This document shows positions 19,700-32,000 of a stretch of DNA of 32,000 nucleotides, piece by piece. The stretch comes from Nonlabens ponticola. Its GTDB lineage: Bacteria > Bacteroidota > Bacteroidia > Flavobacteriales > Flavobacteriaceae. The stretch covers positions 2,160,001 to 2,192,000 of the forward strand of contig NZ_CP034549.1 in the NCBI RefSeq assembly GCF_003966335.1, in the 5' to 3' direction. The number at the start of each line of letters is the position of its first letter. Within the stretch, counting starts at the first letter, position 1. The translations under genes were made by a program, and so were the position numbers. A model generated the notes under the pieces. It had not been told where the DNA came from and ran no database searches. It was given only the letters and a program-made list of their open reading frames with translations.

Positions 19700-19885
19700 C
19701 ACCTCTATCCCGAAGGTTAACAATATAAGTTGCTATGGCAGGTCTCCTGACTTAAACAATTCATGGCCTTCCCAAATTTTCAGTGGCGCTTCATGAACTC
19801 CTATTGCTAGACCGCGATATATCACGGGTTTTTACAGTTGCGGGAACAGTTCTGGACTTACACCAGATTCCCTTTTAATACGGTA
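19700..19885 (-). promoter_or_regulatory. Cobalamin (B12) riboswitch in the 5' leader of the BtuB-like receptor
   Basis: The minus strand reads AAAAGGGAATCTGGTGTAAGTCCAGAACTGTTCCCGCAACTGTAA (plus coordinates about 19832-19876). It then reads GCCACTGAAAATTTGGGAAGGC (GCCACTG is at plus coordinates 19781-19787). The B12 box AGTCAGGAGACCTGCC sits at plus coordinates 19737-19752. These are the conserved blocks of the cobalamin riboswitch class. The 5' and 3' boundaries are approximate. Confidence 0.85.
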
Positions 19886-19914
19886 TTCGTGTTTTTGAGA
19901 TTTTGTATAATCTC

Positions 19915-19928
19915 GCTTTCGCGAAAGC
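19915..19928. repeat. Copy 6 of GCTTTCGCGAAAGC (divergent intergenic region)
   Basis: Exact match. It extends to a 16-bp palindrome at 19914-19929. Confidence 0.95.
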
Positions 19929-20038
19929 GTAACCTATAACAAGCCACAAAAGTAGTCACTTAAGTTTGTTCACACACTAATCATTCAAACAAATTAGAAT
20001 TGAGGTGATCAATTAATATTCGGCTATTTTTGAGCCCT

Positions 20039-24473: not shown

Positions 24474-24815
24474 TACATTACAATCTTTCATCCTGAGCTT
24501 GTTTCAGACTCTCAAGTATGTTGATAATCATTATCAGATGCTGGATTAAATTGAGCATGACGGTGGTTTATTATTCTTAAATCGTCTTAAGATCTTGGGT
24601 ATGCTCAATGAGTGCCTCTAAGTGCTGATCATATCAAGCAGAGTGGTATTTTATTTGTCAGCTTGAATTTATTTCATGATCTCTAGGCACTCTATCGTGA
24701 AAAGTAGTCGGCTATTTGAGACATAAAAATTCATTTTATATGGTATACTGTGCTGTTCAATGAGTTTTAAGTTCATTGATATCATCAGTTTGCGTTAAGG
24801 ATCGTAGTGGAAATC

Positions 24816-24846
24816 CTTTTTGTCCAGCCATGAGCTGGACAAAAAG
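24816..24846. repeat. Perfect 13-bp stem / 5-nt loop hairpin in a long non-coding region
   Basis: CTTTTTGTCCAGC-catga-GCTGGACAAAAAG, read directly. Confidence 0.8.
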
Positions 24847-24925
24847 ATTGTAGCGCAGAGCCTGACCGCTATGTTTGAGCGAGAGCGAAATCATAGTGGT
24901 AACGCGCAAATATTAGAAAGCAATA

Positions 24926-25031
24926 TTATTACGTTATTAAGTAATAATTGTATTTATTACGCTTTTAGGTAATAATTACGATTATTACGTATTTATGTAA
25001 TATATTTGATTATTACGTATTTAGGTAATAA
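24926..25031 (+). promoter_or_regulatory. Four tandem 28-bp units, each containing the inverted repeat TTATTAC-N8-GTAATAA; putative operator array and promoter of the SatD-like operon
   Basis: The palindromes lie at 24926-24947, 24954-24975, 24982-25003 (right arm GTAATAT) and 25010-25031, exactly 28 bp apart. The last ends 3 nt before ATG 25035. TATATTTG at 25001-25008 fits the Bacteroidota -7 promoter consensus TAnnTTTG. Confidence 0.75.
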
Positions 25032-25034
25032 AAT

Positions 25035-25661
25035 ATGGAAGCAATTATAGCAGGCGATATTATCAACTCGCAACAGCATGATCCTGAAGCATACTTGACA
25101 GTACTGCAAGATATCTTGAAAGAACATTCTAGCGATGGGATGTTCCAGATTTACCGTGGCGACAGTTACCAGGCGCTGCTCACTAATCCTGAACAAGCAT
25201 TACATGCATGTATTAAAATAAAGGCGGCGCTCAAAAAAACAGAATCACTAGATACGCGTGTAGCGATAGGATTGGGTGATGTCACGATTATAGACAATAA
25301 CATCGCTGTCTCAACCGGTAGCGCGCTCACAAGATCTGGCGAGCTGCTGGACTCGCTCAAGGAAAAAGGGCATAATTTGTTAGTCAATTCTGGTAACTCA
25401 ATCGATAACTATATGAACACATCACTACGTCTGGCGATGCTATACATGGATGGCTGGACTACCAATAGTGCCGAAACAGTTTATGAATTGCTAGATCAAC
25501 CTGACATAAAACAGGACGAGCTAGGTAAAAGATTAGGCGTGAAACAAGCGACCGCGAGTAGACGCCTAGATCGTGCCAACTGGAAAGAAACGCAGCAGTT
25601 ACTGCGATTGTTTCAACAATTTTATAAAGATATAAGCCATGCCCATAGCAGTTCTAATTAA
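25035..25661 (+). CDS. SatD-family-like protein: N-terminal nucleotide-cyclase-homology-like domain fused to a C-terminal helix-turn-helix
   Basis: The N-terminus, AIIAGDIINSQ / FQIYRGDSYQALL / RVAIGLGDV / STGSALTRSGELL, parallels the class III cyclase and GGDEF palm motifs (FaDIvGFT / iGDa.ma.F / RiGihtG / G..VN.AaRl). The C-terminal HTH is KQDELGKRLGVKQATASRRLDRA. The SatD naming is from memory of annotations that pair it with DUF3307. Confidence 0.55.
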   Translation: MEAIIAGDIINSQQHDPEAYLTVLQDILKEHSSDGMFQIYRGDSYQALLTNPEQALHACIKIKAALKKTESLDTRVAIGLGDVTIIDNNIAVSTGSALTRSGELLDSLKEKGHNLLVNSGNSIDNYMNTSLRLAMLYMDGWTTNSAETVYELLDQPDIKQDELGKRLGVKQATASRRLDRANWKETQQLLRLFQQFYKDISHAHSSSN

Positions 25662-26349
25662 GCTAATCATCGCGCACCTGATAGGCGATTTTTTCTTACA
25701 AACGGACAAAAGTGTCCAAAAAAAAGAAGCTGAAAAGCTTAAGTCCGTGTCCCTATATATCCATGTACTACTGCATGGATTACTTTCATGGATCGCCTTG
25801 TGGAATATTGAGCTATGGTACATCGCGCTATTTATCATGCTAAGCCATCTCGTGGTCGATGTAGCGAAGTTGTACCTAACCAACAAGAAAAATAAACGCT
25901 GGCTGTTCCTGCTGGATCAAGTAGCGCACATTGCGACACTTGTCATAGCCTGGTTATGGTTATCAAACTTTAATATAGTAATGCCGTCATTGTCATCAAT
26001 GCACTTTTGGGCATTCATCGCAGGCATGCTATTCCTGACGGCACCTGTAAGCATCGCGCTCAAAACCTTTTTCACTAGATGGAAACTAGATCCACGCAAA
26101 GTAGGCGTTGACTCGCTCAAGAATGCGGGAAAGTGGATAGGCATGATTGAGCGATTACTGGTATTTGTATTTATCGTTGCCGGTCATTTTGAGGCGGTAG
26201 GATTTTTACTGGCGGCAAAGTCGGTTTTTAGGTTTGGTGATTTGAACCGTGAAAGCAATATGAAGTTGACGGAATATGTATTAATAGGAACATTGCTTAG
26301 CTTTGGGATCGCAATTCTCACAGGCCTTGCCTATCAATCGTTGCTATAA
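25639..26349 (+). CDS. DUF3307-like polytopic membrane protein with conserved intramembrane His/Asp
   Basis: IAHLIGDFFLQTD at the N-terminus, HVLLHG, LSHLVVDVAK, LDQVAHIA, and a C-terminal IERLLVFVFIVAG...AAKSVFRF. There are about 7 TM helices. It overlaps the SatD-like gene by 23 bp. Confidence 0.6.
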   Translation: MPIAVLIKLIIAHLIGDFFLQTDKSVQKKEAEKLKSVSLYIHVLLHGLLSWIALWNIELWYIALFIMLSHLVVDVAKLYLTNKKNKRWLFLLDQVAHIATLVIAWLWLSNFNIVMPSLSSMHFWAFIAGMLFLTAPVSIALKTFFTRWKLDPRKVGVDSLKNAGKWIGMIERLLVFVFIVAGHFEAVGFLLAAKSVFRFGDLNRESNMKLTEYVLIGTLLSFGIAILTGLAYQSLL

Positions 26350-26351
26350 TT

Positions 26352-26717
26352 ATGAAAAAGATTCTAGGTGTTATTATTGCCACTATCGTGCTTATGGCCG
26401 TGATCTGGTATAGCTTTCTATACTTTGCCACCTATTCAGATGGGTCGCGCAGCGGCGAGCTGATTAAGTTCTCACACAAGGGCTTCCTGGTAAAAACCTG
26501 GGAAGGCGAGATTTCACAAGGAATTTCAGGCGCGCAGATTTTTCAATTCTCAGTTTTGGATGAGGAAGATGAGGTGATTGAAAAACTACAAGAGTTTCAA
26601 GGAGAGTATGTCAAGCTGGAATATGAAGAGCGTTTTGGCACCTTTTTCTTCTGGGGTGATACCAAATATTTTATCACCGGTGTTGAATTAGAGGAATCAC
26701 CGCATTTCAGGCGATAA
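26352..26717 (+). CDS. Small N-terminally membrane-anchored protein (hypothetical), third gene of the SatD-like operon
   Basis: It starts 2 nt after the DUF3307 stop. It has one TM helix and then a 90-aa beta-rich domain (GELIKFSHKGFLVKTWEGEISQG...YVKLEYEERFG). Confidence 0.5.
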   Translation: MKKILGVIIATIVLMAVIWYSFLYFATYSDGSRSGELIKFSHKGFLVKTWEGEISQGISGAQIFQFSVLDEEDEVIEKLQEFQGEYVKLEYEERFGTFFFWGDTKYFITGVELEESPHFRR

Positions 26718-31628: not shown

Positions 31629-31852
31629 CGCTTGTTATATCTATATAAAGGTCTAACCTTAAATTTTAATCGGGTGCAAAAATAGGATACTTATATGTAA
31701 ATACACAACCCAAACATAAATATTTATAGACGCTGGCAATTTTTTTTATGGGCGTGTTCCGGATGCTGGTATGGCTATCGCCTACCAGCCTATCGCTGCA
31801 ATCTGCTATCGCAGGATTTCCGCTCTATCCTTCACGCGGTTGCTGTTACTAG

Positions 31853-32000
31853 TTATTGGTGATTGATTATTTGTGATTGGTTATTGTTTGTTAGTTATAG
31901 GTTGTTGGTTGATGTGGTACGTGATATGTGGTGTGTGGTGTGTGGTATATGGTATGTGGTATGTGGTAGGTGGTAGGTGGTAGGTGGTATGTGGTATGTG
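31853..32000. repeat. 7-bp-periodic G+T tract ending in a clean heptanucleotide tandem repeat GTGGTAK; continues past the window edge
   Basis: From 31914 the units are GTGGTAC GTGATAT GTGGTGT GTGGTGT GTGGTAT ATGGTAT GTGGTAT GTGGTAG x3 GTGGTAT x2 GTG. Positions 31853-31913 hold degenerate TTATTGG/TGATTGG-type heptads. There is a single C (31920) in 148 nt of the plus strand. Confidence 0.9.

Follow-up and report, generated by a model that had tools for sequence, protein, structure and literature searches.

Phased palindromes upstream of satD in Nonlabens ponticola as a likely HipB-type operator array

HipB acts as repressor of the hipBA operon by binding cooperatively to four operators of the form TATCCN8GGATA (PMC3376134). 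These operators have been reported to lie 10, 21, and 10 bp apart (PMC4150777), and in the sequence of Escherichia coli MG1655 they are found at -134, -106, -67, and -39, which corresponds to steps of 28, 39, and 28 bp. HipA molecules held by HipB on hipBA DNA dimerize (PMC7758455). The HipB site of Shewanella, GTGTA-N6-TACAC, has a different spacing (PMC4150777), which means that 28 bp is not a general property of HipB proteins. Here we describe four palindromic units, repeated with a period of exactly 28 bp, that immediately precede a satD-like gene in the flavobacterium Nonlabens ponticola. The array resides in a 32,000-nt stretch of contig NZ_CP034549.1 (positions 2,160,001 to 2,192,000), hereafter called the window, whose own numbering is used for the coordinates of this locus. 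Judging from comparative sequence analysis, we consider it likely that the four units form a HipB-type autoregulatory operator array for the adjacent SatD protein, which would bind them cooperatively and repress its own operon.

Sites that match TTATTAC-N8-GTAATAA with no more than two mismatches occur four times in the window, all between the upstream flanking gene rmuC and satD, and nowhere else. Unit 1, the distal one, occupies positions 24926-24947 (TTATTAC-GTTATTAA-GTAATAA) and is followed by unit 2 at 24954-24975 (TTATTAC-GCTTTTAG-GTAATAA), unit 3 at 24982-25003 (TTATTAC-GTATTTAT-GTAATAT), and the proximal unit 4 at 25010-25031 (TTATTAC-GTATTTAG-GTAATAA). The arms of units 1, 2, and 4 are fully palindromic (7+7), and those of unit 3 carry one mismatch. 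The start-to-start step is exactly 28 bp throughout, and Tandem Repeats Finder reports 3.9 copies of a period-28 repeat with 80% matches at 24925-25031. Unit 4 ends 3 nt before the satD start codon at 25035. By chance, 0.30 such sites would be expected per window, and none of 100 shuffled sequences reached four. An initial sequence-only reading of this DNA had described the four units, their starts and period, the approximately 80% identity among them, the 7+7 inverted repeat with its 8-nt spacer, and the distance to the start codon, and our analysis reproduced every one of these features.

Also confirmed was a Bacteroidota sigma-A -7 box that the same reading had placed between units 3 and 4. 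This box (TATATTTG, an instance of TAnnTTTG on the forward strand at 25001-25008) overlaps the right arm of unit 3, and only one other match to TAnnTTTG, at 24870-24877, exists in the rmuC-satD intergenic region. The sigma-A box TAnnTTTG of Flavobacterium psychrophilum is located at positions -12 to -5 (PMC9723704). Applying this spacing to the box at 25001-25008 predicts a transcription start site (TSS) near 25013 and a 5' untranslated region of ~22 nt. Relative to this predicted TSS, unit 2 would span ~-59 to -38, unit 3 would span ~-31 to -10, and unit 4 would extend from ~-3 to +19 and thereby cover the start site and the leader, with unit 1 upstream of all three. Scans with sigma-70 and terminator models, which are ill-suited to Bacteroidota, returned no more matches than shuffled sequences.

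The chromosomal context of the array, with rmuC on one side and satD on the other, is common to five Nonlabens species (the window and loci L081 to L084). Among these species, only the arms and the sequence GTAATA(T/C)ATTTGA, in which the -7 box follows the penultimate unit, are invariant, and the spacers and linkers drift. The arms of unit 3 are invariant, as are the ATTAC/GTAATA arms of unit 2, whose spacer and linker vary. The window, L081, and L084 have unit 4, which is degenerate in L082 and L083. Unit 1 is seen only in the window and L084, and is therefore the most dispensable unit.

Similar arrays are widely distributed. An exhaustive profile search recovered 1,629 SatD family representatives at E values up to 0.001, and a profile scan of genomes with a 71-protein alignment yielded 80 loci (37-43% identity) from Flavobacteriaceae, Chitinophagaceae, Cyclobacteriaceae, Prolixibacteraceae, Balneola, and other groups, to which the four Nonlabens loci were added by separate retrieval. 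When the 170 nt upstream of each satD gene were inspected, tandem palindromes were evident in nearly every locus. A generic site (tat-NNN-N8-N'N'N'-ata) was next used to score the 250 nt that precede satD, which gave 231 examples in 19.7 kb upstream of 81 satD genes. This amounts to 11.7 sites per kb, compared to 0.35 per kb elsewhere in the loci, or a 34-fold greater density. Consecutive sites are spaced by exactly 28 bp in 123 of 152 cases. At least two units in exact 28-bp register are present at 66 of 85 satD loci and at least three at 49 of 85, with a maximum of five. In contrast, 539 kb of background sequence contained four phased pairs, all of which belong to satD-linked arrays located just beyond the 250-nt upstream window. 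The array, its phasing, and its conservation are real and not the result of chance. The sequence-only reading had noted that its model would fail if the motif were simply common in AT-rich DNA, which is contradicted both by the lack of a further copy in the window and by its density upstream of satD. It had also asked whether orthologous satD genes carry comparable arrays, and they do, well beyond the Flavobacteriaceae.

The association extends to plasmids of other bacteria, where a tblastn search located the satD gene together with its usual downstream partner, a gene for a DUF3307 membrane protein, in Vibrio, Salinivibrio, Sphingomonas, and Segatella. The satD gene of a Vibrio lentus plasmid is preceded by TTAGCC-N6-GGCTAA at -106, -78, and -50, again with a step of 28 bp. 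Two degenerate units 28 bp apart precede the Salinivibrio gene, and the Segatella gene has one clear palindrome with a weak second one 28 bp further on. No array was found upstream of the Sphingomonas plasmid gene. A step of 28 bp corresponds to 2.67 helical turns, and therefore helical register is regained every 84 bp and a given face of the DNA carries only every third site. That the same step is found in Bacteroidota, in Vibrio, and within the operator pairs of E. coli hipBA suggests a shared higher-order architecture.

Across lineages, the outer TAT/ATA bases and the 8-bp spacer of each unit remain constant, and it is the inner triplet that varies. A half-site type could be assigned for 78 of the 81 loci analyzed. 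The most common triplet classes are TAC (34), CAC (11), TAG (9), CGT (4), AAG (4), TCC (3), and CAT (3), with a few examples of AGG, TGC, CGG, and CTG. We calculated the mutual information between operator class and each of the approximately 200 columns of the SatD alignment. Residue 176, which is adjacent to the invariant S175, has the highest raw value (2.04 of 2.78 bits), and the two highest normalized values belong to residues 172 and 176, both of which reside in the recognition helix of the predicted DNA-binding domain. An R at position 176 is paired with TAC; N, S, or T with CAC or CAT; E or D with CGT, CGG, or AGG; and Q with TAG or AAG. In a neighbor-joining tree built without residues 155-185, such that the helix-turn-helix (HTH) was left out, the Nonlabens proteins (A172/R176, TAC) fall outside the Flavobacterium clade that has the same A/R-TAC combination, and the lineages with E176 are scattered. 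This placement argues that the association is not merely a consequence of shared ancestry. Residues 172 and 176 therefore constitute a candidate specificity code, to which loci L010, L063, and L070 are exceptions.

Two of these exceptional loci have arrays of mixed composition. Five units in a single 28-bp register are present at -153 to -22 upstream of satD in L063, of which two are of the CAC/ATG type and three are of the TCC/GGA type. In L010, two TCC-type and two CGT-type units make up one phased array at -145 to -42. Such mixtures suggest a second SatD paralogue or a switch of specificity in progress. A different arrangement is seen in three Chitinophagales loci, where a second, two-unit array of the CAC type lies just 3' of the DUF3307 gene, between convergent genes (L002 4335-4382, L003 4336-4383, and L034 4358-4405), so that the satD-DUF3307 pair is flanked by arrays on both sides.

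The protein that is proposed to bind these sites is encoded by satD at 25035-25661 on the forward strand. Its 208-aa product scores 28.6 bits against the Pfam family SatD (PF16264; cut-off 29) over residues 5-181, and many close homologs have a precomputed PF16264 match, several of which are named SatD by NCBI. An AlphaFold2 (AF2) model built from a 71-sequence alignment has a mean predicted local distance difference test (pLDDT) score of 97. This model comprises a beta-alpha-beta N-terminal domain (~1-135), followed by helices at 143-154, 160-167, 171-180, and 183-207. The HTH occupies approximately residues 142-180, which agrees with its assignment to this gene product by the sequence-only reading. 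Its recognition helix is 171-180 (KQATASRRLD), and this runs straight into the long C-terminal helix 183-207, leaving no beta wing. When the C-terminal domain alone was modeled from a single sequence, the pLDDT was only 62.

Profile comparisons indicate that this HTH is homologous to that of HipB and thus Xre/Cro-like. In an hhalign comparison with E. coli HipB, SatD residues 145-178 align to HipB residues 13-46 with 94.5% probability and an E value of 8e-8 (SatD ELGKRLGVKQATASRRL versus HipB ELAKKIGIKQATISNFE), and the best profile matches of the SatD family in the PDB are HipB entries (E 5e-4). Membership in the MarR family, with its winged fold, was implicit in the sequence-only reading but has to be rejected. 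The matches to Pfam MarR (22.8 versus 24.6 bits) and MarR_2 (19.5 versus 27 bits) fall below their cut-offs, and the AF2 model lacks a wing. That reading's more general proposal, autoregulation at four operators, appears well supported by the comparative evidence, namely the co-variation with the recognition helix and the homology to HipB.

The N-terminal domain has different relatives. A Foldseek search of the PDB with residues 1-135 returned 4wp9, 1ybt, 5d0g, and 4zvf, each with a probability of 1.0, at E values of 2e-3 to 1e-2 and TM (template modeling) scores of 0.4-0.5. The search placed the domain with class III adenylyl cyclases (Ma1120 and Rv1900c), GGDEF domains, and GTP cyclohydrolase III. 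Profile alignment pairs the SatD sequence yRGDsFQ with the metal-binding Asp motif QGDGFM of Ma1120, and ldvRlaiG with irVRiGIH, although the match in sequence is marginal (E ~0.4). Residues D8, S12, R41, G42, D43, Q46, and R75 are invariant or nearly so in the family. The motif RGD[SE]F (R41-G42-D43), which may be compared to GGDEF, reads RGDSYQ in Nonlabens. D43 aligns with the GD motif of Ma1120, and D8 would correspond to the first metal-binding Asp on the basis of motif resemblance only. Pfam calls no cyclase or GGDEF domain on SatD, and we found no paper that describes SatD as a cyclase-like palm protein. As judged from the structural model, residues 1-135 nevertheless adopt a class III nucleotidyl-cyclase/GGDEF-like palm fold.

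These features can be combined into a mechanism. One SatD dimer would bind each palindrome by using its HipB-like HTH, with the two recognition helices reading the inner triplets (TAC...GTA) that lie 8 bp apart, and with the constant outer TAT/ATA and the A/T-only center of the spacer setting the frame. Neighboring dimers would touch, a contact that is proposed because the 28-bp step is so strictly conserved, and this would fix the step and make binding cooperative. The wrapping or filament-like binding suggested by the sequence-only reading is conjecture. In N. ponticola, an occupied array would cover the -7 box at 25001-25008, the start site near 25013, and the leader, and SatD would thereby shut off its own operon, satD-DUF3307-orf121. 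Relief of repression presumably would be achieved through the cyclase-like domain, either by binding of a nucleotide or metal or by a change in oligomeric state. By analogy to HipA, this fused domain, whose fold is normally dimeric, is a candidate for a bridge between dimers that could explain the fixed step.

A far more speculative extension, which we regard as a long shot, would make SatD a DNA-templated signaling oligomer. Its N-terminal domains would pair across operators as HipA does, and build a helical filament with a 28-bp step that returns to register each 84 bp, or eight turns. Occupancy of the array might then gate nucleotide synthesis or sensing, and nucleotide state might in turn gate repression of DUF3307, in the manner of a toxin-antitoxin or cyclase-effector pair. 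Phages of Flavobacteriia with two-unit SatD operators at the starts of their own genes could then tap or titrate this switch.

Several observations weigh against autoregulatory repression by SatD as the function of these arrays. There is no clear -33 TTTG element upstream of the -7 box in the window. Two half-site types are combined within one phased array in L010 and L063, and TCC sites are found together with E, T, or K at residue 176, which makes a one-residue code too simple. The co-variation between operator and helix is also partly confounded by shared ancestry. Moreover, two-unit arrays exist between convergent genes, and in phage contigs that lack SatD in the fetched stretches. Finally, in many Flavobacterium loci the array lies ~50-140 bp upstream of what appears to be a leaderless start, a position that resembles that of an activator site.

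This last observation is the basis for the rival that survives best, although we still judge it improbable. The units could be SatD operators at which SatD activates transcription, or both activates and represses, with the array serving as an upstream activating region for the recruitment or positioning of RNA polymerase. Many Flavobacterium loci (L013, L021, L026, and others) have a conserved TAnnTTTG at -12 to -5 from the satD ATG, which implies that satD mRNA is leaderless there and that the core promoter lies downstream of the array. In F. psychrophilum, only ~5.5% of mRNAs examined are leaderless (PMC9723704). In this large Flavobacterium clade the last unit ends 32-55 bp from the ATG, placing the array at roughly -50 to -140. 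In contrast, in Nonlabens, Zobellia, Mesonia, and Balneola just 4-7 bp separate the end of the last unit from the ATG, and the conserved -7 box of Nonlabens lies between the last two units. Boxes of this kind recur across taxa at phase 18 of the unit, where they make use of the TA of the right outer arm, and in one Flavobacterium clade the box is found inside the spacer of the last unit instead. Indeed, many of the Flavobacterium loci with an apparent leaderless start have a second -7 box within the last-unit spacer, which also argues against activation alone, and the homologous HipB is a repressor (PMC3376134). The expectation from the sequence-only reading that bound protein covers both promoter and leader would thus hold for Nonlabens, given the predicted TSS, but not for Flavobacterium, where the array is upstream of the likely core promoter. 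Repression is the parsimonious interpretation for Nonlabens, and the sign of regulation may not be universal.

Alternatively, the palindromes might be operators for an unlinked transcription factor, such as a global regulator, with SatD being merely one of its targets. A search of metagenome contigs for the exact two-unit TAC pattern, which yielded at least 137 arrays in at least 120 stretches, bears on this possibility. Among the 137 arrays listed, 65 are located directly upstream of satD, 57 are plastid-like hairpin repeats, 13 are in virus-like contigs of 27-37% GC content (except for L197, which has bacterial-type flanking genes), and two are at contig ends. The plastid-like group consists of 28-nt tandem hairpins (TTATTACGCTWWAGCGTAATAAGCGACC) on GC-rich contigs that encode atpI and rpl16 (e.g., L155 4337-4384 and L138 1727-1880; the group lies within L085-L204), and its spacers and gene content show it to be unrelated to satD. 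In bacterial-type contigs among the arrays listed, the two-unit array is essentially confined to satD.

The virus-like contigs speak for an unlinked factor, in that two-unit TAC arrays of this kind are found on phage contigs whose fetched stretches contain no satD. IMG/VR supplied 15 further stretches with a two-unit array, again with no satD in the portion fetched, and at least one array-bearing contig is clearly from a phage (phrog_22398, E 1.6e-119). Viral or virus-like contigs in which two TATTAC-N8-GTAATA sites follow each other at the 28-bp step include L214 (1719-1766), L215 (5078-5125), L216 (4032-4079), L136 (1006-1053), L217, and L223. Several of the viral arrays stop 2 nt short of the ATG that opens a small open reading frame (ORF), which resembles the near-ATG layout in the window, and others lie between convergent genes. 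Several have spacers (ACATTTTG) that recur, letter for letter, in satD operators of Flavobacterium. No two-unit arrays of the CAC type were found in viral contigs. A search of BFVD for a viral SatD-like protein gave no convincing match, and the fetched phage stretches contain no SatD-type recognition-helix motif. Phage arrays of this kind may reflect the use or titration of host SatD. The mixed arrays in L010 and L063 likewise could accommodate another factor. However, the operator class tracks the recognition helix of SatD across lineages, the array accompanies satD onto plasmids of another phylum, and the HTH of SatD is homologous to that of a protein that binds operators of the same design. 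Together with the near restriction of bacterial two-unit arrays to satD, these findings make it very unlikely that the palindromes are operators for an unlinked factor.

We give slightly less credence still to the notion that the units act as RNA, for example as four tandem leader hairpins that constitute a cis-regulatory structure, a target recognized by an RNA-binding protein, or an element for termination or attenuation. A 7-bp stem closed by an 8-nt loop could form from each unit, the array region folds with a z score of -5.1 relative to shuffled sequences, and changes in the arms are compensatory when taxa are compared. Convergent genes flank some of the two-unit arrays, and in N. ponticola the TAnnTTTG match at 24870-24877 could in principle drive transcription of the whole array. 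Nevertheless, in the minimum free energy fold the units pair with one another rather than forming four separate hairpins, and searches of the array, the window, and 20 related loci against Rfam, both at gathering thresholds and at E values up to 10, revealed no family on the array. Among arm pairs, 1,264 of 1,477 are Watson-Crick, and the mismatches comprise 22 G:T, 24 A:C, and 167 others. The near equality of G:T and A:C indicates that there is no preference for wobble pairs. The spacer is two-fold symmetric in composition about the dyad, and its central four positions are 99% A/T. The strict 28-nt step and the constant outer TAT/ATA would not be expected of independent hairpins. Furthermore, three of four units in Nonlabens and all units in Flavobacterium lie upstream of the likely TSS, the upstream box is missing from other Nonlabens species, where the intergenic region is only 81 nt, and the co-variation with a DNA-binding helix would be left without explanation. 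The sequence evidence as a whole points to two-fold symmetric protein-DNA sites and not to RNA hairpins.

Least probable of all is a neutral tandem duplication or dispersed mobile repeat, which could appeal to the existence of unrelated 28-nt hairpin repeats such as the plastid-like arrays and to a repeat-like element 55 nt upstream, but which is contradicted by the comparative data, since no further copy exists in 32 kb, arms but not spacers are kept within the genus, and position, phase, and palindromy are kept at one gene family across phyla while the sequence changes. Plasmid-type iterons, which are direct repeats adjacent to an origin or a rep gene, were also considered and rejected. The units are palindromes, and they are flanked by rmuC and satD in the chromosomal setting that the five Nonlabens species share.

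The upstream element is a match to the Flavo-1 RNA motif (RF01705, 57.8 bits) at 24789-24871 on the forward strand. It resides in ~400 nt of extra intergenic DNA that is missing from other Nonlabens species (the rmuC-satD gap in N. marinus is 81 nt), and the motif ends in the second TAnnTTTG at 24870-24877. Flavo-1 is also present ~1 kb upstream of satD in L015 and L035. The copy in the window looks like an inserted repeat element. It was rejected as a component of the satD system because the other Nonlabens loci lack it and because it does not adjoin the array where it is found elsewhere.

The satD gene is the first of an apparent operon. The DUF3307 (satC-like) membrane protein gene, at 25639-26349 on the forward strand (Pfam DUF3307, E 3.6e-25), overlaps satD by 23 nt, and in 84 of 84 Bacteroidota loci that were fetched a DUF3307 gene immediately follows satD. 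The name SatD derives from the sat operon of Streptococcus mutans, which is involved in acid tolerance and likewise pairs SatD with SatC/DUF3307. Three nucleotides after the DUF3307 gene is an ORF for 121 aa (26352-26717, forward strand), which among the fetched loci follows DUF3307 only in L081-L084 and L031, and which has no match in Pfam, NCBIfam, or PADLOC. In Nonlabens, the operon probably includes this ORF as its third gene. DUF3307 has no sequence relative in the PDB, and PADLOC gave no defense-system match for any of the three operon proteins. The only NCBIfam match was to HipB antitoxin, at 17.5 bits versus a cut-off of 79. The locus was rejected as a HipBA toxin-antitoxin module, in that the downstream gene encodes a DUF3307 membrane protein and not a HipA kinase, and the analysis gave no sign of toxin-antitoxin function. 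On a plasmid of Sphingomonas insulae (NZ_CP048421.1; L206), the satD-DUF3307 pair is located beside a gene annotated as encoding a Pycsar effector family protein and downstream from a gene for an ImmA/IrrE peptidase, with no array seen. In Streptococcus pyogenes, satD has been reported as the only gene that is both essential and accessory (PMC11323703). As a lead only, this essentiality could fit the loss of a repressor that restrains a harmful neighbor.

Two further features of the window were noted. A cobalamin riboswitch (RF00174, 84.4 bits) is located at 19720-19953 on the reverse strand, and another cobalamin riboswitch lies within 3 kb upstream of satD in L070. Short tandem repeats fill positions 31850-32000, where 12.7 copies of the 7-nt unit ATGTGGT (31912-32000) are preceded by repeats of 7, 14, and 21 nt, and the run continues past the end of the window.

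How the satD system relates to known regulators can be judged from several comparisons. MarR repressors share with our model of SatD a dimeric HTH, palindromic operators over their own promoter, and autoregulation, and a weak match to Pfam MarR below the cut-off covers SatD residues 142-180. However, MarR repressors are winged-helix proteins and the SatD model has no wing, and MarR operators are not known to be organized in uniformly phased arrays. The satD arrays resemble the met boxes of MetJ and the arrays of Lrp/AsnC in that copies of one site are repeated at a constant step, in a number that changes from promoter to promoter, and, under the proposed model, in that the bound proteins contact one another along the DNA. 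Lrp/AsnC proteins also pair an HTH with an effector domain, which is ferredoxin-like. The step is 8 bp for MetJ and about three turns for Lrp, and the folds and DNA-binding motifs of both differ from those of SatD. Class III cyclases and GGDEF proteins (Ma1120, Rv1900c, and DosC) have the same palm fold as the N-terminal domain of SatD, but unlike these proteins SatD has its palm domain fused to a DNA-binding domain.

Searches of the literature for SatD, DUF3307, and related names uncovered no paper that describes these arrays. Likewise not found described were the cyclase-like fusion, the DUF3307 partner, uniform phased arrays in two phyla, and a readable specificity code. Our findings suggest a concrete molecular role for SatD in the widespread SatD-DUF3307 gene pair, namely that of a DNA-binding protein combining a HipB-like HTH with a cyclase-like domain, whose operators would be predictable from their half-site type.

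The closest parallel is hipBA, from which both the regulator class and the operator logic are known. As in the Nonlabens array, hipBA has four palindromic operators immediately in front of the gene for its own regulator. The inner triplets are 8 bp apart in both systems (TCC-N8-GGA versus TAC-N8-GTA), and the 28-bp step of satD is found between O1 and O2 and between O3 and O4 of hipBA. The two systems differ in that HipB is an 88-aa stand-alone HTH protein partnered with the HipA kinase toxin, whereas in SatD the HTH is joined to a cyclase-like domain and the partner is a DUF3307 membrane protein. The operators are arranged 28-39-28 in hipBA but uniformly 28-28-28 in satD arrays of two to five units, and the outer bases are not the same, with an 18-bp core for HipB and a 20-bp core for satD of Bacteroidota. 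The 28-bp architecture that these two systems appear to share could be probed structurally.

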